44,241 nucleotides of DNA from Escherichia phage vB_EcoP_KAW1A4500: the sequence record MK373773.1. One strand, 5' to 3'. Position 1 is the stretch's first letter, and each line of letters starts with the position of its first letter. The notes beneath the pieces are model-generated. The model saw only the letters and a list, made by a program, of their open reading frames with translations, searched no databases and was not told the origin of the DNA. Positions 3,903-44,241 of this stretch are shown here, piece after piece. The translations under genes were made by a program, and so were the position numbers.

Positions 3903-6528
3903 ATGCAAGACCTACACGCTATTCAACTTCAACTTGAAGAAGAAATGTTTAACGGCGGTATCCGTCGCTTTGAAGCGGACCAACAACGCCAGATTGCATC
4001 CGGTAATGAATCAGACACGGCATGGAATCGCCGTTTATTGTCCGAGTTAATCGCGCCAATGGCTGAAGGTATTCAGGCATACAAGGAAGAGTATGAAGGT
4101 AAAAGAGGCCGTGCACCGCGTGCATTAGCTTTCATTAACTGCGTAGAAAACGAAGTGGCAGCATATATCACGATGAAAATCGTTATGGATATGCTGAATA
4201 CAGACGTTACCTTACAAGCAATCGCTATGAATGTAGCGGACCGCATCGAAGACCAAGTACGTTTTAGCAAGCTGGAAGGTCACGCAGCTAAGTACTTTGA
4301 GAAAGTGAAGAAGTCGCTTAAGGCTAGCAAGACTAAATCTTATCGTCATGCGCACAACGTAGCGGTAGTAGCTGAGAAATCTGTTGCTGACCGTGACGCG
4401 GATTTCTCCCGTTGGGAGGCATGGCCTAAAGATACCTTGCTACAAATCGGTATGACCTTGCTAGAAATACTGGAAAATAGTGTATTCTTCAATGGTCAGC
4501 CTGTCTTTCTTCGCACCTTGCGCACTAATGGTGGCAAGCATGGCGTTTACTACTTACAGACCAGTGAACACGTAGGGGAATGGATTACAGCATTTAAAGA
4601 ACATGTAGCGCAACTTAGCCCGGCTTATGCACCTTGCGTTATACCTCCGCGTCCGTGGGTTTCTCCTTTTAATGGCGGTTTTCACACTGAGAAGGTAGCA
4701 AGTCGTGTGCGTCTTGTTAAAGGCAGCCGTGAACGTCCGCAAGCTGACCAAAAAGCAAATGCCAGCGGTTTACAAGGCTGTTAACGCTTTGCAGGCGACT
4801 AAATGGCAGGTTAACAAGGAAGTTTTACAGGTTGTTGAGGACGTAATACGGCTTGATTTAGGCTATGGCGTACCTTCCTTCAAACCACTCATCGACCGCG
4901 AGAACAAGCCAGCTAATCCGGTGCCGTTAGAGTTCCAGCACCTGCGAGGCCGTGAACTGAAAGAAATGTTAACACCGGAACAATGGCAAGCCTTCATCAA
5001 CTGGAAAGGTGAATGCACCAAGCTGTATACCGCTGAGACTAAGCGCGGCAGCAAATCGGCGGCGACCGTCCGCATGGTAGGGCAGGCCCGTAAATACAGC
5101 CAATTTGACGCAATATACTTCGTGTATGCTCTGGACAGCCGCAGCCGCGTCTACGCGCAATCTAGCACGCTCTCTCCGCAATCAAACGACTTAGGCAAGG
5201 CATTGCTCCGTTTTACCGAAGGGCAGCGTCTTGATAGCGCTGAGGCGCTTAAGTGGTTTTTGGTGAACGGGGCTAATAACTGGGGTTGGGATAAGAAAAC
5301 TTTTGACGTGCGCACCGCTAACGTGCTGGATAGTGAATTTCAAGACATGTGCCGCGACATTGCAGCGGATCCGCTGACCTTCACTCAATGGGTAAATGCC
5401 GACTCCCCTTACGGCTTCCTTGCATGGTGCTTTGAATATGCGCGTTATCTGGATGCACTGGATGAAGGCACGCAAGACCAATTCATGACGCACCTCCCAG
5501 TCCATCAAGATGGTAGTTGTTCTGGTATCCAGCACTACAGTGCTATGCTACGCGATGCAGTAGGTGCGAAAGCGGTAAACCTTAAGCCCTCTGACTCACC
5601 TCAAGATATTTATGGTGCCGTTGCGCAGGTAGTAATTCAGAAGAATTATGCATACATGAATGCAGAGGATGCGGAAACCTTCACTTCTGGCAGCGTGACT
5701 TTAACAGGTGCAGAACTTCGTAGCATGGCTAGTGCGTGGGATATGATAGGAATCACTCGCGGCCTGACCAAAAAGCCTGTAATGACACTACCTTATGGCA
5801 GCACACGTCTAACCTGCCGTGAATCAGTGATTGATTATATCGTTGATTTGGAAGAAAAAGAGGCCCAACGGGCTATTGCGGAAGGGCGTACCGCCAATCC
5901 TGTACATCCTTTTGATAATGACCGCAAAGACAGCCTGACACCTAGCGCAGCTTATAACTATATGACAGCTTTAATCTGGCCTTCTATTTCGGAAGTGGTT
6001 AAAGCTCCTATAGTGGCAATGAAAATGATTCGTCAGCTTGCACGTTTCGCAGCTAAAAGAAACGAAGGCTTAGAATATCCCTTACCAACTGGCTTCATCT
6101 TGCAACAAAAGATAATGGCTACCGATATGCTCCGCGTATCCACTTGCTTGATGGGTGAAATCAAGATGAGTCTCCAGATTGAAACAGATGTAGTTGATGA
6201 AACGGCAATGATGGGTGCGGCTGCTCCTAACTTCGTCCATGGTCACGATGCTAGCCACCTGATTCTGACTGTATGTGACCTAGTGGATAAAGGTATTACA
6301 TCCATTGCAGTCATCCATGATTCTTTCGGTACTCATGCAGGACGTACCGCAGACCTGCGGGATAGCTTAAGGGAAGAAATGGTTAAGATGTATCAAAACC
6401 ATAATGCCCTGCAAAATCTGCTAGATGTGCACGAAGAGCGTTGGTTAGTAGACACCGGAATCCAAGTACCAGAGCAAGGAGAGTTTGACCTTAACGAAAT
6501 CTTAGTTTCAGACTATTGTTTCGCATAA
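3903..6528 (+). CDS. Phage single-subunit DNA-directed RNA polymerase (SP6-type), interrupted by an apparent frameshift near 4734
   Basis: Two overlapping ORFs (3903..4784 and 4705..6528) together give an RNAP of about 874 aa; N-terminus [19 protein letters not shown] and palm motifs ([21 protein letters not shown]) match SP6-type RNAP as recalled. Confidence 0.9.
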
Positions 6529-6535
6529 TATTAAT

Positions 6536-6564
6536 AGGCCATTCCTTAGGGAGTGGCCTTTTTC
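6536..6564 (+). terminator. Intrinsic terminator after RNA polymerase gene (early terminator)
   Basis: AGGCCA/TGGCCT 6-bp stem with internal pairing followed by TTTTT, 8 bp after the RNAP stop. Confidence 0.6.
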
Positions 6565-6602
6565 TTTACCTACTACCTGTAACATTTCATTAACATAAAA
6601 GT

Positions 6603-6618
6603 GTCTCACATGTGAGAC
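6603..6618. promoter_or_regulatory. Perfect 16-bp palindrome GTCTCACATGTGAGAC (family copy 1)
   Basis: Perfect dyad; 2 bp upstream of promoter P1. Family copies at 6794, 9103, 10261, 15203, 31645. Confidence 0.7.
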
Positions 6619-6620
6619 TT

Positions 6621-6643
6621 ATTTACCGGACACTATAGGATAG
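6621..6643 (+). promoter_or_regulatory. Phage RNAP promoter P1 (ATTTACCGGACACTATAGGATAG), variant
   Basis: Matches the genome-wide SP6-type consensus at the GGACACTATAG core; positional analogue of T7 phi1.1A. Confidence 0.65.
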
Positions 6644-6659: not shown

Positions 6660-6790
6660 AGAAAGGGAAGATAAAGGATATAAAGGAAGTAATAGGTATT
6701 AAAGGTTATATAGGTTATCTAGGAACACCTAGGAATACCTATTACCTTCTTCCTTCCTCTTATTACCACTTAGAGGAAGGGCAGACCTAG
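6660..6790. other. AT/purine-rich TAGG-repeat element with dyad symmetry; candidate primary replication origin
   Basis: Repeats of TAAAGG/TATAGG/CCTAGG between two tandem phage promoters, downstream of the RNAP gene and upstream of gp1.1-like and primase genes, as at the T7 primary origin (analogy is inference). Confidence 0.4.
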
Positions 6791-6793
6791 GTT

Positions 6794-6809
6794 GTCTCAC
6801 ATGTGAGAC
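6794..6809. promoter_or_regulatory. Perfect 16-bp palindrome GTCTCACATGTGAGAC (family copy 2)
   Basis: Identical to copy 1; 5 bp upstream of promoter-like P2. Confidence 0.7.
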
Positions 6810-6814
6810 TTCGT

Positions 6815-6837
6815 ATTTACCGGACAGTATAGATAAG
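6815..6837 (+). promoter_or_regulatory. Phage RNAP promoter-like P2 (ATTTACCGGACAGTATAGATAAG), degenerate
   Basis: 19/23 match to consensus, with a C-to-G change in the core; positional analogue of T7 phi1.1B. Confidence 0.45.
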
Positions 6838-6863: not shown

Positions 6864-6992
6864 ATGCGTAACTTTGAGAAGATGTCCCGTAAAGCTAACC
6901 GTTTTGACATGGAAGAAGGGCAGACGAAAGGCAAGAAGCTGAATAAACCTGTCCGTGACCGTGCATCTAAACGCGCTGCGTGGGAGTTCTAA
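6864..6992 (+). CDS. Gene 1.1-like small basic protein (42 aa)
   Basis: Translation MRNFEKMSRKANRFDMEEGQTKGKKLNKPVRDRASKRAAWEF closely resembles T7 gp1.1 as recalled; GGAG RBS; below ORF-track cutoff. Confidence 0.7.
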   Translation: MRNFEKMSRKANRFDMEEGQTKGKKLNKPVRDRASKRAAWEF

Positions 6993-6995
6993 GTT

Positions 6996-8084
6996 ATGGC
7001 TATTATTCAGAACGTACCGTGTCCTGCCTGTCAAAAGAATGGACATGATATTACTGGCAACCATCTTATGATATTTGAGGATGGCGCTGGTTACTGCAAC
7101 CGTGGTCACTTCCATGATAACGGCAAGCCTTATTACCATAAGCCAGAGGGTGGCATCGAGATAACCGAATTACCTATTACTGGCAATATCAAATATACAC
7201 CTTCTCAGTTTAAAGAGATGGAGAAGGAAGGGAAGATTAGTGACCCTAAGCTACGCGCCATCGCACTTGGTGGTATGCGTATGAAAGACCGTTGGGAGGT
7301 CATGAATGAGCAAGAAAGGGCAGAACAAGAAGCAGAGTGGAAACTTGATGTTGAATGGTTCCTCACGCTCAAGCGTAAGAACCTTGTATCCCGTCACATT
7401 CGAGGTGACATCGCAGCAATGTACGATGTGCGCGTTGGACACGATGAAGAGGGAAGAGTCAACCGTCACTATTATCCACGATATGAAAAGGGTGTGCTTG
7501 TTGGAGCAAAATGCCGGACGTTGCCGAAGGATTTTAAGTTCGGACACCTAGGTAAACTCTTTGGTATGCAAGACCTTTTCGGTATGAACACTTTGTCTCA
7601 CGTGTTAGACAAGGGAAGACGAAAGGATTGCTTGCTTATTGTGGGCGGCGAACTGGATGCACTAGCAGCACAGCAGATGCTCCTTGATTCTGCCAAGGGT
7701 ACTAAGTGGGAAGGCCAGCCTTACCATGTATGGTCTGTCAATAAAGGTGAGTCTTGCCTTGAAGAGATAGTGCAGAACCGTGAGCATATCGCCCAATTCA
7801 AGAAGATTATATGGGGTTTTGATGGAGATGAGGTGGGGCAGAAGCAGAATCAGCAAGCGGCTCGCCTGTTTCCTGGCAAATCCTATATCCTTGAATACCC
7901 TTCTGGTTGCAAAGATGCTAACAAGGCATTGATGGCAGGGCTAAAGAGTTTGTTGATGCTTGGTTTAATGCCAAGTCATCTGATGAAGTCTTTGGTAGCC
8001 AGATTAAATCTATCGCATCTCAAAGGGATAAGCTCAAGGCTGCACGTCCAGAGCAAGGGTTATCATGGCCTTGGCCTAAGCTGA
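6996..8084 (+). CDS. DNA primase domain of a gene-4-like primase/helicase; ORF tail is out of frame
   Basis: N-terminal Cys4 zinc ribbon (CPACQ...CNRGH) and TOPRIM-like GFDGDE segment up to CKDAN; after about 7932 the homologous reading continues in another frame. Confidence 0.85.
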   Translation: MAIIQNVPCPACQKNGHDITGNHLMIFEDGAGYCNRGHFHDNGKPYYHKPEGGIEITELPITGNIKYTPSQFKEMEKEGKISDPKLRAIALGGMRMKDRWEVMNEQERAEQEAEWKLDVEWFLTLKRKNLVSRHIRGDIAAMYDVRVGHDEEGRVNRHYYPRYEKGVLVGAKCRTLPKDFKFGHLGKLFGMQDLFGMNTLSHVLDKGRRKDCLLIVGGELDALAAQQMLLDSAKGTKWEGQPYHVWSVNKGESCLEEIVQNREHIAQFKKIIWGFDGDEVGQKQNQQAARLFPGKSYILEYPSGCKDANKALMAGLKSLLMLGLMPSHLMKSLVARLNLSHLKGISSRLHVQSKGYHGLGLS

Positions 8085-8927
8085 ACAAGGTAACGCTAGG
8101 TATTCGTAAGAACCAGCTTATCATTGTAGGTGCAGGCTCTGGTGTAGGTAAGACTGAGTTCCTCCGCGAAGTGGTTAAACACCTCATTGAAGAGCACGGT
8201 GAATCTGTAGGCATCATTTCTACAGAAGACCCGATGGTCAAGGTGTCCCGTGCTTTTATCGGTAAGTGGATTGATAAGCGCATTGAGTTACCGCCAACCA
8301 ATGACCCGAAAGAAGACGGATACCGTGAGGTGTTCGACTACACCGAGGAAGAAGCTAACGCTGCCATTGATTATGTGGCTGATACAGGAAAGCTATTTGT
8401 GGCTGACTAGAAGGCGACTATTCTATGGAGAAGGTAGAGCAAACTTGCCTAGTTTGAGGCTATGGGCATTTCTAATATCATCATTGATAACTTAACGGGG
8501 ATTAAATTAGATGAGCGTGCTTTTGGGGAAGGTTGGTGCACTTGATGAATGCGTCAAACGAATTGGTACTATCAAAGACCGACATGCGGTTACGATTTTC
8601 CTTGTCTCTCACCTTACACGTCCTCCGGCAAACCGTACCCAACACGAAGAAGGTGGCGAAGTTATCCTTTCTGACTTCCGAGGCTCAGGCGCTATCGGAT
8701 TCTGGGCATCTTACGCCTTGGGATTGAGCGTAAGAGAACGCTTGATGAAAGGACTACCACGTACATCTCGTGTGTCAAAGACCGCGATCAAGGTATCTAC
8801 ACTGGAAAAGGTCATGCTTAAAGGTGACATTCAGACCGGACGTTTGATGGAACCACAAGCCCGTACTAAGTCATTTGATACAGTGAAGCAAGGCAGCAAG
8901 AGGTGCCTGATTTACCGGACACTATAG
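7922..8927 (+). pseudogene. Helicase domain of gene-4-like primase/helicase, split into at least three frame segments
   Basis: Walker A GAGSGVGKT in frame 2 (open 7922..8407), Walker B-like NIIIDNLTG in frame 2 (8453..8542), HEEGGEV...RGSGAI in frame 0 (8511..8927); stops in all three frames between 8404 and 8510. Confidence 0.8.
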
Positions 8928-13163: not shown

Positions 13164-13231
13164 GTTATACTCAAGGTCACTTACGAGTGGCCTTTATGAA
13201 TAACTTATTCCTACTTATTTTGTCTAACATG

Positions 13232-13254
13232 ATTTACTGGACACTATAGAAGGA
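13232..13254 (+). promoter_or_regulatory. Phage RNAP promoter P4 (ATTTACTGGACACTATAGAAGGA)
   Basis: Consensus 23-mer, intergenic. Confidence 0.8.
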
Positions 13255-13318
13255 AAGCCTAGGTAATCTAGGTTTATAAGGTAGTATAGGTAATTAAGTA
13301 AATATAGGAGATATAAAT
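13255..13318. other. AT-rich TAGG-repeat element downstream of P4
   Basis: CCTAGGTAATCTAGG...GTAGTATAGGTAATT resembles the elements at 6660..6790 and 38370..38435. Confidence 0.35.
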
Positions 13319-14002: not shown

Positions 14003-14023
14003 TTACTGGACACTATAGAACAA
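14001..14023 (+). promoter_or_regulatory. Phage RNAP promoter P5 (AATTACTGGACACTATAGAACAA)
   Basis: Consensus core; followed by a roughly 140-nt leader with short hairpins (GTGCATCTTGCAC, CCCGATACTATATCGGG). Confidence 0.7.
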
Positions 14024-14166
14024 TAGGTCGGCTTAGTTCGGCCTATGATTGTAAAGTGTTGAACCGCCTTTTGTGCATCTTGCACAACCCGATACTATAT
14101 CGGGCTTTCTAGTGAGTACATGCTTGTGCTCAGTACAAAGCTAACTGACAATAGGAGACTAAATAA

Positions 14167-15233: not shown

Positions 15234-15256
15234 ATTTACTGGACACTATAGAAGAG
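15234..15256 (+). promoter_or_regulatory. Phage RNAP promoter P6 (ATTTACTGGACACTATAGAAGAG)
   Basis: Exact consensus 23-mer. Confidence 0.85.
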
Positions 15257-18404: not shown

Positions 18405-18421
18405 TTGACACTATAGAACAA
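18399..18421 (+). promoter_or_regulatory. Phage RNAP promoter P7 (ATTTAGTTGACACTATAGAACAA)
   Basis: Consensus core with 2 upstream substitutions; overlaps the phosphoesterase stop. Confidence 0.65.
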
Positions 18422-18474
18422 AAAGGGGAGGTATTAGCTTACCCTTGATTGTATAGTGAATGGAGGAATTAATT

Positions 18475-36450: not shown

Positions 36451-38348
36451 TGGCTAAGGCAAGAGAATCACAAGCGGAGGCTCTTGCCAGATGGGAGATG
36501 CTACAGGAGTTACAGCAGACCTTTCCTTACACAGCGGAAGGTTTGCTTCTCTTTGCAGATACAGTTATTCATAACTTAATTGCAGGCAACCCTCATCTGA
36601 TTCGTATGCAGGCGGATATCTTGAAGTTCCTATTTTACGGACACAAGTACCGCCTCATCGAAGCGCCTCGTGGTATCGCTAAGACAACACTATCAGCAAT
36701 CTATACGGTATTCCGTATTATTCATGAACCACATAAGCGTATCATGGTTGTGTCCCAAAACGCCAAGCGAGCAGAGGAAATCGCAGGTTGGGTAGTTAAA
36801 ATCTTCCGTGGCTTAGACTTTCTTGAGTTTATGCTGCCGGATATCTACGCTGGGGACCGTGCATCCGTTAAGGCGTTTGAGATTCATTACACCCTACGTG
36901 GTAGTGATAAGTCTCCTTCTGTATCCTGTTACTCAATCGAAGCAGGTATGCAGGGTGCTCGTGCTGATATTATTCTAGCGGATGACGTAGAGTCGATGCA
37001 GAATGCTCGTACGGCAGCGGGCCGTGCCTTGCTTGAGGAACTGACTAAGGAGTTTGAATCTATCAACCAGTTTGGGGATATCATTTACCTTGGTACACCT
37101 CAGAACGTAAACTCTATCTACAACAACCTACCTGCTCGTGGTTACTCTGTTCGTATCTGGACTGCGCGTTACCCTTCAGTAGAGCAAGAGCAATGTTATG
37201 GCGACTTCCTTGCACCTATGATTGTTCAAGATATGAAGGACAACCCAGCACTTCGCTCAGGATACGGGTTGGATGGTAATAGTGGTGCACCTTGTGCCCC
37301 TGAAATGTATGATGATGAAGTCCTGATTGAGAAGGAAATCTCTCAGGGTGCTGCTAAGTTCCAGCTTCAGTTCATGCTTAACACTCGCATGATGGATGCT
37401 GACAGATACCCATTACGCCTGAACAATCTAATCTTCACCTCGTTTGGTACAGAGGAAGTCCCTGTGATGCCTACGTGGAGTAATGATTCCATAAACATCA
37501 TTGGTGATGCACCTAAGTATGGTAACAAGCCTACGGATTTCATGTACAGACCTGTAGCTCGCTCATACGAATGGGGTGCTGTCTCCCGCAAGATTATGTA
37601 TATTGACCCTGCGGGTGGTGGTAAGAACGGAGATGAGACGGGTGTAGCCATCGTATTCCTGCACGGCACATTCATTTATGTGTATCAGTGCTTTGGTGTA
37701 CCTGGCGGATACCGAGAGTCGTCCCTGAATCGCATTGTGCAGGCCGCAAAGCAGGCGGGTGTTAAAGAGGTATTCATTGAGAAGAACTTTGGTCATGGCG
37801 CGTTTGAGGCGGTAATTAAGCCGTACTTTGAACGAGAGTGGCCTGTAACTCTGGAAGAGGATTACGCCACCGGACAGAAAGAGTTGCGTATCATTGAGAC
37901 GCTGGAGCCGCTCATGGCAGCCCATAGGCTTATCTTCAATGCAGAGATGGTGAAGTCAGACTTTGAGTCGGTACAGCACTATCCGCTTGAACTACGCATG
38001 TCCTACAGTCTTTTCAATCAAATGTCGAACATAACGATTGAGAAGAACAGCCTCCGGCACGATGACCGCCTAGACGCCCTGTATGGCGCTATACGGCAAT
38101 TAACTTCTCAGATAGACTATGACGAGGTTACACGGATTAATCGCCTCAGAGCGCAGGAGATGCGCGATTACATCCATGCTATGAATACACCTCATCTACG
38201 CAGGGCAATGCTATATGGAGATTACGGTACTGAGCGAAGAGTGACCAACACTTCCGTAGCGATGCAGCAGCGAGTTTACGGGCAGAACTACCGAAATAAA
38301 TCGGCAAGCAGAAATACACTTTCTGCAAGGATTTCAAGGACCTATTAA
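36447..38348 (+). CDS. Terminase large subunit (633 aa)
   Basis: Large ORF after the small terminase with overlapping start; size and position as T7 gene 19. Confidence 0.82.
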   Translation: MMAKARESQAEALARWEMLQELQQTFPYTAEGLLLFADTVIHNLIAGNPHLIRMQADILKFLFYGHKYRLIEAPRGIAKTTLSAIYTVFRIIHEPHKRIMVVSQNAKRAEEIAGWVVKIFRGLDFLEFMLPDIYAGDRASVKAFEIHYTLRGSDKSPSVSCYSIEAGMQGARADIILADDVESMQNARTAAGRALLEELTKEFESINQFGDIIYLGTPQNVNSIYNNLPARGYSVRIWTARYPSVEQEQCYGDFLAPMIVQDMKDNPALRSGYGLDGNSGAPCAPEMYDDEVLIEKEISQGAAKFQLQFMLNTRMMDADRYPLRLNNLIFTSFGTEEVPVMPTWSNDSINIIGDAPKYGNKPTDFMYRPVARSYEWGAVSRKIMYIDPAGGGKNGDETGVAIVFLHGTFIYVYQCFGVPGGYRESSLNRIVQAAKQAGVKEVFIEKNFGHGAFEAVIKPYFEREWPVTLEEDYATGQKELRIIETLEPLMAAHRLIFNAEMVKSDFESVQHYPLELRMSYSLFNQMSNITIEKNSLRHDDRLDALYGAIRQLTSQIDYDEVTRINRLRAQEMRDYIHAMNTPHLRRAMLYGDYGTERRVTNTSVAMQQRVYGQNYRNKSASRNTLSARISRTY

Positions 38349-38369
38349 TTACTGGACACTATAGAAGGA
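38347..38369 (+). promoter_or_regulatory. Phage RNAP promoter P9 (AATTACTGGACACTATAGAAGGA)
   Basis: Consensus 23-mer overlapping the terminase stop; positional analogue of T7 phiOR. Confidence 0.75.
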
Positions 38370-38460
38370 AGGCCAGATAATAAGAGAAATAATAGGTAAT
38401 ATAGGTTAACCTAGGTTATATAGGTATGCCTTAGTATGGGTGTACTCCTGTACACCCTAT
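38370..38460. other. AT-rich TAGG-repeat element plus 8-bp-stem hairpin downstream of P9
   Basis: AATAATAGGTAATATAGGTTAACCTAGGTTATATAGGTAT resembles 6700..6745 and 13258..13300; hairpin GGGTGTAC-TCCT-GTACACCC at 38438..38457. Confidence 0.4.
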
Positions 38461-38503
38461 TCCTTACTACCTTACTATATTTACATAATAGGAGAGAGAG
38501 ACA

Positions 38504-43756: not shown

Positions 43757-43974
43757 GCAGGTTAATATCTTAGTGTACACAAGGGCAGACCTAGGTTTGC
43801 TCTTAGTGCCATCAAAGGAGGGTGTAGGTATGTTATCTTTGTTGTGTATACTCAGTGATGTCCTAGGTCGTAAGAGGTACATTCTTAGTGAAGACCAAAT
43901 AAGGGACGAGAAGATACGGAGGTCGCTCACAAAGTAACCAAAGTCAAAATTTTGATATAGGCGTGTGTGAGGTG

Positions 43975-44241
43975 TCTCGCCCTCGCCCTCGCCGGATTTC
44001 CCCCATATGGGGCCGCGCTGCGGTTGGCTTGGGAGTTGGGCTGGGCTGGTCCGTCTTCGACGGGTGGCCTAGGGCTTGCCGAGGTCTGCTCTTAGTGGCT
44101 GCACAAGGAGAACGCCTAGGAAGCGCTAGGGCACGCCTTAGTATTGGACAAGGTGATTGCCTTAGTGCAACCGCTTAGGGCTTACACAGGCCGTTTTAGG
44201 GCCATTCCTGAGCTTTTGACAGGGTGGGCGTGGGTGGGCTA
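43975..44241. repeat. Right direct terminal repeat (DTR), 267 bp
   Basis: Identical to 1..267; preceded by CTTAGTG-type short repeats at about 43770..43890. Confidence 0.9.

Follow-up and report, generated by a model that had tools for sequence, protein, structure and literature searches.

Arrays of 9-10-bp YAGGTA-type repeats behind three promoters of a K1E-like phage: candidate origin modules of the SP6 group

The genome and its promoter-linked repeat arrays

Escherichia phage vB_EcoP_KAW1A4500 (MK373773.1) carries AT-rich arrays of a short TAGG-type repeat directly downstream of some of its phage promoters, and these arrays are the subject of this study. The 44,241-bp stretch analyzed here (the window) is a complete K1E/K1-5-like phage genome (Vectrevirus, Molineuxvirinae, SP6 group). 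Over 2 kb it is 97.9% identical to vB_EcoP-UTI89UKE2 and 95% identical to K1E, whose gene order it shares, and its + strand carries all genes and all promoters. A strict promoter pattern, GGACA[ACG]TATAG plus five degenerate downstream positions, has 9 matches in the window versus 0 expected. A looser pattern adds two promoters, at 14008 and 18406, and brings the genome total to 11, which corrects the figure of 9 given in an earlier reading of this DNA (the original prediction). Only three of the 11 promoters are followed by arrays. These three have the form GGACAC/GTATAG and start transcription at 6638, 13249 and 38364. The element after P1 is named E1, that after P4, at the coordinates of the original observation, E2, and that after P9, E3. 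P4 and P9 also have a common initial transcribed sequence, GAAGGAAxGCC. The promoters and arrays are:

6621..6638, + strand: promoter P1, ATTTACCGGACACTATAG, +1 = 6638; found by pattern search, kept in relatives, drives E1
6671..6741, + strand: E1 array, seven [TA]AGG[TA] units at 6674, 6683, 6693, 6702, 6711, 6720 and 6730
6794..6832, + strand: second palindrome copy and promoter P2, ATTTACCGGACAGTATAG, +1 = 6832; closes the E1 module
13232..13249, + strand: promoter P4, ATTTACTGGACACTATAG, +1 = 13249; found by pattern search
13260..13308, + strand: E2 array, units at 13260, 13269, 13278 and 13287, and a last one at 13305
38347..38364, + strand: promoter P9, AATTACTGGACACTATAG, +1 = 38364; directly after the terminase large-subunit gene
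38392..38426, + strand: E3 array, TAGGT units at 38393, 38402, 38412 and 38421

Tandem Repeats Finder, used as a hypothesis-blind caller, reported arrays at all three elements:

6671-6718 (E1): unit ATAAAGGAT
6692-6723 (E1): unit ATAGGTTAT
6719-6741 (E1): unit CTAGGAACAC
13260-13308 (E2): unit TAGGTAATA
38392-38426 (E3): unit ATAGGTAAT

The units ATAGGTTAT, TAGGTAATA and ATAGGTAAT of E1, E2 and E3 have a nearly identical consensus. The consensus unit of the arrays is the 9-base ATAGGTAAT, repeated in tandem with a period of 9 or 10 and always on the sense strand. The arrays lie 12-60 nt downstream of the three promoters for the phage RNA polymerase (RNAP) and begin between +12 and +37; the TAGG-repeat strings that had been quoted after P1, P4 and P9 are indeed found there. 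The start-to-start spacing of [TA]AGG[TA] is 9, 10, 9, 9, 9 and 10 in E1, 9, 9, 9 and 18 in E2, and 9, 10 and 9 in E3. Clusters of at least four TAGG[TA] within 60 nt occur three times on the + strand and never on the - strand, versus a mean of 0.04 and a maximum of 1 in whole-genome dinucleotide shuffles. Furthermore, shuffles made element by element, which control for local AT-richness, give P = 0.004-0.02 for TAGG[TA]. Three-way alignment of E1, E2 and E3 yields an ordered common core, TAATAGGTAnTATAGGTT..ATATAGGTTATATAGGTAT. The sequence said to be shared past the promoter is thus real and is more than a common AT-rich composition. Genome-wide over- or under-representation of CTAG/CCTAGG or TAGGT was also considered and is unremarkable.

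Conservation of the arrays among relatives

Arrays are found at the three syntenic sites in K1E, K1-5, SP6, SE29, IME184, Kenya-K31, G3A1, Koku and IMG/VR contigs. The sites with arrays thus span Vectrevirus, Zindervirus, Ulipvirus and more distant SP6-like contigs. We collected 16 distinct homologues of E1, 18 of E2 and 20 of E3, and measured conservation as the mean pairwise identity of AGG core columns versus other array columns. Core and spacer identities are 0.75 versus 0.59 in E1, 0.93 versus 0.82 in E2, and 0.95 versus 0.74 in E3. In each element, the excess of core over spacer is larger than in all eight register-shift controls, and the common function that had been proposed for the three sites gains support from this constraint. 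The number of units per array varies from 2 to 7 among homologues. For instance, the extra 10-bp unit CTAGGAACAC of E1 is specific to the window and missing from K1E and K1-5 in the alignment.

E1 and E3 are kept in SP6-like contigs that have different promoters (..GACCACTATAG, ..GGCTACTATAG, ..GGCGGACTATAG or ..GGCGAGTATAG) and only 71-74% identity in the C-terminal region of the RNAP. On this comparison, the arrays are independent of promoter specificity. In one of these lineages, L276/L297, the spacers are GC-richer (ATACC, ATTCC, ATGCCC) and the TAGGTA and CAGGTA units are retained. Since E1 and E3 persist despite another promoter specificity and GC-richer spacers, the arrays are an ordered motif and not mere AT-richness. 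The E3 array is kept in the distant lineages L297, L299 and L307. Of the E2 array, only two units are left in L327 and none in L321, where the promoter and the gene 15 homologue are still there. Judging from these alignments, the conserved entity is the YAGGTA unit in a register of about 9-10 bp, most deeply conserved at E1 and E3. In Koku, the first 24 nt of E2 and E3 are identical.

A scan of IMG/VR with TAGGT-N4-TAGGT-N5-TAGGT returned mainly unrelated arrays, plus further SP6-type E1 copies. The unrelated arrays include environmental viral contigs (L198, L233, L191, L181 and others) with 4-7 (G)ACCTAGGT units at 10-11-bp spacing, which adjoin a conserved segment, ..TTCTAAGGCCATACTG..TGTCCTATCTATGG.., the search pattern itself having selected such arrays.

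Architecture of the three modules

The E1 module runs, in order, through a palindrome, P1, a 5' hairpin, the array, a pyrimidine-rich inverted arm, a second hairpin, the palindrome again, P2 and gene 8. The open reading frame of the RNAP ends at 6528, P1 starts transcription at 6638 and P2 at 6832, and E1 is therefore located between the RNAP gene and the gp1.1-family gene. Its further features are:

6603..6618, no strand assigned: 16-bp palindrome GTCTCACATGTGAGAC, upstream of P1; second copy at 6794-6809, upstream of P2
6644..6656, + strand: 5'-proximal hairpin CCGTC-GGA-GACGG, at +7..+19 of the P1 transcript; folded
6734..6780, + strand: pyrimidine-rich inverted arm and second hairpin; from inverted repeats and folding
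6752-6760 paired with 6772-6780, + strand: the second hairpin; from inverted repeats
6864..6992, + strand: gene 8, a 42-amino-acid basic protein of the Phage_1_1 family (T7 gp1.1 homologue; Pfam PF08200, E = 1.4e-14)

The 5' hairpin has compensatory variants in relatives, CCATC..GATGG in L052, L274 and L275 and CCTTC..GAAGG in SE29 and L276. Moreover, part of the array (6683-6700) and the inverted arm (6734-6751) form two arms of 18 nt that are 89% complementary. Their duplex energy beats that of composition-matched shuffles in the window (z = -3.0), as does the arm pairing of SP6-type, SE29-type, Koku-type and other divergent lineages (z = -2 to -3.4). Therefore, E1 holds a genuine, conserved long imperfect dyad, the fold of the whole leader reaching only z = -1.9. 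The inverted (3') arm shares the 10-mer ACCTTCTTCC with T7, where it lies just 3' of an RNase III consensus motif.

With up to two mismatches, the palindrome GTCTCACATGTGAGAC occurs in 8 copies in the genome versus 0.21 expected. These 16-bp copies start at 581, 6603, 6794, 7595, 9104, 10262, 15203 and 31646 and are often just upstream of phage promoters, namely both E1 promoters and the promoter at 15241. In other lineages, GTCCAACGTGTTGGAC replaces GTCTCACATGTGAGAC at both E1 positions, and the change is symmetric. A hairpin or terminator function is conceivable for the palindrome, as is that of an operator bound by a dimeric protein. Between the RNAP gene and this palindrome, a hairpin followed by a T-run (6540-6575) looks like an early-transcription terminator and is related to the RNase III-type site at 13169-13199.

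The surroundings of E2 and E3 are as follows:

13169..13199, + strand: near-perfect T7-type RNase III consensus ACTCAAGGTCACTTACGAGTGGCCTTTATGA, immediately upstream of P4; found by motif scan
38438..38457, + strand: GC-rich hairpin GGGTGTAC-TCCT-GTACACCC with an 8-bp stem, downstream of the E3 array; from inverted repeats and folding
38458..38503, + strand: pyrimidine-rich, G-poor tract, then the Shine-Dalgarno TAGGAG (38489) of gene 41 (ATG 38504)

The last E2 unit, TAGGAG at 13305, is the Shine-Dalgarno of gene 15 (ATG 13319). E2 thus runs straight into this signal, and an inverted-repeat search found no inverted partner for it. The copy of the RNase III consensus ahead of P4 and E2 reads ACTCAAGGTC..GAGTGGCCTTTATGA. 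In E3, the centre of the array is a perfect 12-bp palindrome, TAACCTAGGTTA, in which CCTAGG is invariant across 20 homologues. Furthermore, at least six different stems keep the E3 hairpin paired in relatives, for instance GGGAGGTA..TACCTCCC, GAGGGTAC..GTACCCTC and GGGAC..GTCCC. A long hairpin with purine and pyrimidine arms, RNase III-like, was also considered for E3 and rejected: over 20 homologues, its duplex energy equals that of composition-matched shuffles (mean z = -0.05). The consensus fold of E3 is weak (RNAalifold, -7 kcal/mol, no covariation term), the overall folds of E2 and E3 are not significant (z = -0.6 and -0.2), and no Rfam family matches at its gathering threshold anywhere in the window.

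Comparison with the origins and RNase III sites of T7

In T7, gene 1 (RNAP) and gene 1.1 are separated by the promoters phi1.1A and phi1.1B and an AT-rich tract after them. This tract downstream of phi1.1B is part of the primary origin. Dunn and Studier are said to have called another T7 promoter, phiOL, a 'replication promoter' in 1983. Because E1 lies between the RNAP gene and the gp1.1 homologue, as phi1.1A and phi1.1B do in T7, it is, judged by gene order, syntenic with the T7 primary origin. Both regions run from the RNAP gene through two tandem phage promoters to a gp1.1-family gene, both have a low-stability tract directly 3' of a phage promoter, and both repeat a short unit, YTTAAG in the T7 group, whose copy number and spacers vary. 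They differ in the unit itself (YAGGTA here, YTTAAG there) and in the inverted pyrimidine arm that follows the E1 array and forms a long dyad with it; moreover, origin activity is demonstrated in T7 only. In 17 distinct T7-group contigs, the second post-RNAP promoter leads into a tract of 3-7 YTTAAG/TTAAAG units whose spacers vary. Both subfamilies therefore have, after the post-RNAP promoter, an array of short lineage-specific units. As for the ranking of origins in T7, a passage of PMC8373140 that cites Rabkin and Richardson (1988) gives phi1.1A/phi1.1B as primary and phiOR and phi6.5 as secondary origins.

A nearest-neighbour scan of duplex stability in 60- and 100-bp windows was used as a proxy for an unwinding element. 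In the whole T7 genome, the four least stable stretches at these sizes are phiOL, the phi1.1B tract, phi6.5 and phiOR. In the window, E2, E1 and E3 are the three least stable 100-bp stretches (ranks 1-3), and the three elements rank 1, 3 and 4 among 60-bp stretches, E2 being the least stable at both sizes. The elements are likewise the top three unstable stretches in K1-5 and G3A1, and are within the top six in K1E, SP6, SE29, Kenya-K31 and Koku. Hence, as at phiOR, phi6.5 and phiOL, the DNA after a phage promoter is among the least stable of the genome, and several such modules are present per genome. The T7 sites have only 1-3 YTTAAR units and no regular 9-bp arrays such as those found here. 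E3 resembles phiOR in its position directly after the terminase large-subunit gene. In the SP6 group, however, lysis and tailspike genes follow the terminase gene, which leaves E3 6 kb away from the right end. Nothing in T7 corresponds to E2 by position.

The RNase III motif scan also returned matches in T7 that we take to be the sites R0.5, R1.1, R1.3 and R4.7, which the T7 record leaves unannotated. One match is at 5876, between phi1.1A and phi1.1B (5848 and 5923), where R1.1 lies as well. R4.7 precedes phi4.7, like the site at 13169-13199 ahead of P4. The E1 dyad, between two post-RNAP promoters, would occupy the place of R1.1, and ACCTTCTTCC from its arm recurs in T7 on the 3' side of the motif. 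Unlike R1.1, the arrays lack the RNase III consensus: in the motif scan, CAAGGTC...GAGTGGCCTTTATGA is absent from them and present upstream of P4 at 13169-13199. In addition, an imperfect transcript hairpin of about 20 bp or more is formed by E1 and not by E2 or E3, which form no long duplexes.

The three elements as putative replication origins

We tentatively propose, as the best-supported explanation, that the three elements are T7-type transcription-activated origin or unwinding modules, an SP6-group version of the 'replication promoter'. This is plausible if somewhat short of probable. Each module would consist of a phage-RNAP promoter firing straight into a short, easily melted tract of 9-10-bp YAGGTA-type repeats. 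By analogy with T7, the initiating RNAP would open the duplex, and DNA synthesis would be started over the first 10-100 nt by the transcript or by the bubble in the low-stability tract, the RNA 3' end being handed to the phage DNA polymerase. The primase-helicase would then load on the displaced sense strand. In this scheme, the T7 primary origin would have its homologue in E1, with the order RNAP gene, P1, array plus dyad, P2 and gp1.1 homologue, and E2 and E3 would be paralogous modules serving as additional origins. We infer both that DNA synthesis starts at the arrays and the manner in which it does so. The original prediction had suggested secondary replication origins; the origin part of this suggestion has circumstantial support from the synteny of E1 and from low stability, but the word secondary does not suit E1, which would correspond to a primary origin.

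All three elements have a phage-RNAP promoter immediately upstream that transcribes into the tract. All three also have an exceptionally AT-rich downstream tract of low stability, with small margins and a weakening of this property in the distant lineage L276/L297. Tandem promoters between the RNAP gene and gene 1.1 are found at E1 only. Furthermore, a passage of PMC4837284 credits Dobbins et al. (2004) with the suggestion that bidirectional replication originates at the SP6 DNA polymerase gene. E2 is about 300 bp downstream of the DNA polymerase gene.

The conservation of AGG cores while spacers drift is not explained by a plain unwinding element, and it suggests that the tract is a sequence-specific signal as well, read by a protein, by the RNAP or by the replisome. 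Moreover, a second role of the arrays as leaders is likely since the tracts also form mRNA 5' ends.

Several observations weigh against the proposal of origins. The case for it consists of synteny and a physical proxy, and the stability margins in the window are small (z = 3.4, 2.9 and 2.9, versus 2.8 for the next window), whereas T7 shows a clear gap (4.1-4.9 versus 3.2 at rank 5). The GC-richer spacers of the lineage L276/L297, where YAGGTA units persist, indicate that low stability is not the most deeply conserved property, and the E2 array is missing in lineage L321. In addition, the T7 array comes after the second promoter, whereas the E1 array lies between the two, at the place of the T7 R1.1 RNase III site. 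R-loop thermodynamics (Sugimoto RNA:DNA minus SantaLucia DNA:DNA) are extreme only at the start of E1 and unfavourable at the T7 origins; with E2 and E3 at the 15th-18th percentile, this measure is not diagnostic. The recognition site of the SP6 primase, reportedly found to be 5'-GCA-3' by Tseng, Frick and Richardson in 2000, is not part of the repeat unit and is absent from inside the E2 and E3 arrays; one GCA at 6781 in E1 (GGGCAGAC) is conserved in K1E and SP6 types and lost in SE29 and Koku. Finally, the detrended cumulative GC skew has its minimum near E1 in the window, SP6 and K1-5, but the boundary between early and middle transcription is a confounder, and T7 is a poor control.

Alternative explanations

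The arrays may instead act in RNA, as an A/U-rich, C-poor 5' leader with repeated weak Shine-Dalgarno-like cores (AGGU/AGGA) that docks 30S subunits or S1, acting as a standby site or an enhancer, or otherwise sets the stability and processing of the gene 8, 15 and 41 mRNAs; we consider this possible but doubtful. It would account for the presence of all units on the sense strand and none on the other, and for the AGGU or AGGA of every unit, each a 4-nt match to the anti-Shine-Dalgarno. It would also fit the TAGGAG that is both the last E2 unit and the Shine-Dalgarno of genes 15 and 41, the natural variants with stronger Shine-Dalgarno-like sequences (GAGGT, TAGGAGG), and the compensatory changes in the E1 5' hairpin and the E3 hairpin, which point to selection of a kind that would fit a folded RNA or a DNA hairpin. 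A comparable case is the 'epsilon' translational enhancer in the T7 gene 10 leader, together with standby-site leaders, where several genes are likewise preceded by a recurring A/U-rich motif in the 5' leader; the T7 origin tract itself contains the epsilon-like TTTAACTTTAAG. Those leaders differ from the arrays, which are multi-copy, periodic and at variable, sometimes long distances from the start codon, and which in E1 adjoin no ribosome-binding site. Indeed, the units are next to a start codon in E2 only (0 nt); the E1 array is cut off from gene 8 by a whole second promoter and the E3 array is separated from its ATG by about 80 nt and a stable hairpin, which argues against a purely translational role. 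Furthermore, the gene 15 homologue of L321 keeps its promoter without an array, which is therefore dispensable there, T7-group YTTAAG arrays are mostly without GG and not Shine-Dalgarno-like, UAGGU is retained with no drift to the stronger GGAGG, and neither the Rfam search nor the folds of E2 and E3 give a structured RNA. At E1 the RNA could rather be processed, the array being the 5' arm of an RNase III hairpin equivalent to R1.1, with E2 and E3 as unrelated look-alikes or decayed copies. The complementary E1 arms, their better-than-shuffled pairing in divergent lineages, their place between two promoters and the ACCTTCTTCC shared with T7 all speak for such a hairpin. We nevertheless hold it to be improbable: E2 has no inverted partner, E3 arm pairing equals shuffles, yet E2 and E3 have the same units under the same constraint, the canonical consensus is elsewhere (13169-13199), and the fold of the whole E1 leader attains only z = -1.9. 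A CsrA-type sponge RNA was rejected, as only K1E-type E1 is GGA-rich, SP6-type E1 and the E2/E3 units being mostly GGU.

At the DNA level, the 9-10-bp repeats and CCTAGG palindromes could be an iteron array bound by a phage or host protein, acting as a roadblock or switch at three promoters or as a DNA organizer. Such an array, which is compatible with the origin proposal, is unlikely. The arrays do contain at least three regularly spaced direct repeats with a conserved core, the spacing is close to one helical turn, spacers and unit number vary around the core, units persist where AT-richness does not, and the perfect palindrome TAACCTAGGTTA keeps CCTAGG in all 20 E3 homologues; the identical first 24 nt of E2 and E3 in Koku further suggest concerted evolution. 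These properties recall the iterons of lambdoid phage and plasmid origins (O-binding repeats of the lambda ori, Rep iterons), which are also regular direct repeats with a conserved core and variable spacers adjoining easily melted DNA. However, classical iterons have far longer units (about 17-22 bp versus 9-10 bp), the arrays are transcribed in a fixed orientation to the promoter, a strict one-strand orientation is not needed for binding to double-stranded DNA, and the mean period of 9.3 bp drifts from the helical phase. A candidate binder or initiator is also lacking among neighbouring and small early or middle proteins: no DNA-binding or initiator family scored above threshold in the 18 proteins scanned with Pfam, five of which, plus one further open reading frame, were also compared with PHROGs. 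The sole hint of DNA binding is a sub-threshold HTH_23 match in the open reading frame at 1749-1961 (16 bits versus a cut-off of 24.6). The arrays could also be functionless, as duplicated promoter-leader cassettes whose 9-bp repeats change by slippage. Variation in unit number (the extra 10-bp E1 unit of the window, an extra ATAT in the K1-5 E3, about 30 nt extra in the IME184 E3) and the GAAGGAAxGCC shared by P4 and P9 would be expected from such neutral minisatellites. This is nonetheless very improbable given that arrays are kept at the same sites across phages with RNAPs only about 71% identical, that cores are conserved above spacers and all register shifts, and that the T7 group has a parallel architecture.

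Returning to the origin proposal, a bolder version of it would make the short-unit arrays sequence-specific origin iterons of the T7 supergroup, YAGGTA and YTTAAG being read by a lineage-matched origin-licensing factor. We regard this extension as quite unlikely. Candidate readers would be the gp1.1-family protein or the primase-helicase; the gp1.1-family gene, which encodes a tiny, very basic protein, stays beside the post-RNAP module in both subfamilies. Two other ideas on what the units do were rejected. Evenly spaced GG doublets might stabilize the 8-bp elongation hybrid, but weakest-window energies equal those of shuffles, here and in T7. TAGGT resembles positions -13 to -9 of the SP6 promoter, yet the arrays are unchanged in phages with TACTGGAC, AAGACCAC, GGGGCTAC or TGGCGAG promoters.

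Novelty and significance

The modules are of a known kind, a T7-type promoter with an AT-rich origin or leader, and are distinct by their regular 9-10-bp YAGGTA array, its three copies per genome and the dyad of E1. Full-text literature searches returned no description of the arrays, which two 2004 genome papers on SP6 and K1-5 may mention, and no paper on SP6-group origins was found in the searchable literature. To our knowledge, no replication origin has yet been mapped in the SP6/K1-5/K1E group (Molineuxvirinae). Phages of this group, from which the SP6 RNAP comes, are used therapeutically against K1 E. coli, Salmonella and Klebsiella.

If the modules are origins, the T7 paradigm of transcription-activated origins would extend to a second subfamily. 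They would also become mutable targets for engineering, for instance for replication-competent minimal genomes or phage-dependent plasmid amplification. The retention of cores as spacers drift, even without AT-richness, together with the YTTAAG parallel of the T7 group, suggests an overlooked sequence-specific origin signal. Should iterons with a matched reader be the right explanation, the long-held view of T7-type origins as a promoter plus non-specific AT-rich DNA would be overturned, and if gp1.1 were this reader, it would gain a function. If the arrays are RNA leaders, they would constitute a new recurrent 5' untranslated module of phage-RNAP transcripts.

Other features of the genome

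The direct terminal repeat is 267 bp long (1-267 = 43975-44241). ATCTGTT, which we take to be the class II pause/termination motif of T7, occurs at 267-273; it starts at the last base of the terminal repeat and so straddles its inner edge. In T7, ATCTGTT starts at 161, one base beyond the 160-bp repeat. A concatemer-junction pause signal thus appears conserved in the SP6 group. Moreover, 22 of the 34 copies of CTTAGT (often CCTTAGTG) are located in about 1.6 kb at the genome ends (117-860 and 43769-43884, and copies inside the terminal repeat), with a period-24 array at 316-396, a pattern that resembles the CCTAAAG arrays beside T7 terminal repeats. One CTTAGT copy is inside E3 (GCCTTAGTATGGG).

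At the two promoters of the 'TATAGAACAA' class (14008-14080 and 18406-18470), a hairpin lies downstream of the promoter. In its 3' arm (TTGATTGTATAGTG or TTGTAAAGTG), positions -7..+6 of the promoter recur in inverted form, so that the hairpin sequesters the transcript's 5' end; this arrangement is conserved in all relatives examined.

Compared with K1E, the RNAP gene has a 2-bp deletion at 4733 that splits it into open reading frames 3903-4784 and 4705-6528, and the primase-helicase gene (7933-8883) has nine deletions of 1-5 bp that break it into several. These deletions are most likely sequencing or assembly errors; otherwise the genome would be defective.

A perfect K1E/K1-5-type promoter, ATTTACTGGACACTATAGAAGGA, identical to P4, is also present in bacterial DNA, at L013:3973-3995 (an IMG/VR prophage contig) and at L455:1534-1556 (E. 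coli M217 chromosome, NZ_AP019189.1). In these lambdoid prophages, it lies in a stretch that carries no annotation, with the gene for an HNH endonuclease on one side and the serum-survival lipoprotein gene iss/bor on the other. Since it is identical to P4 and on the same strand as iss, about 360 nt upstream, the RNAP of a K1E-like phage could drive the prophage iss/bor gene, or a small open reading frame, upon infection. Such expression could serve as a decoy, a sensor or a defence trigger. The 401-bp region that carries it is fully present in 570 of 5,426 complete E. coli genomes.

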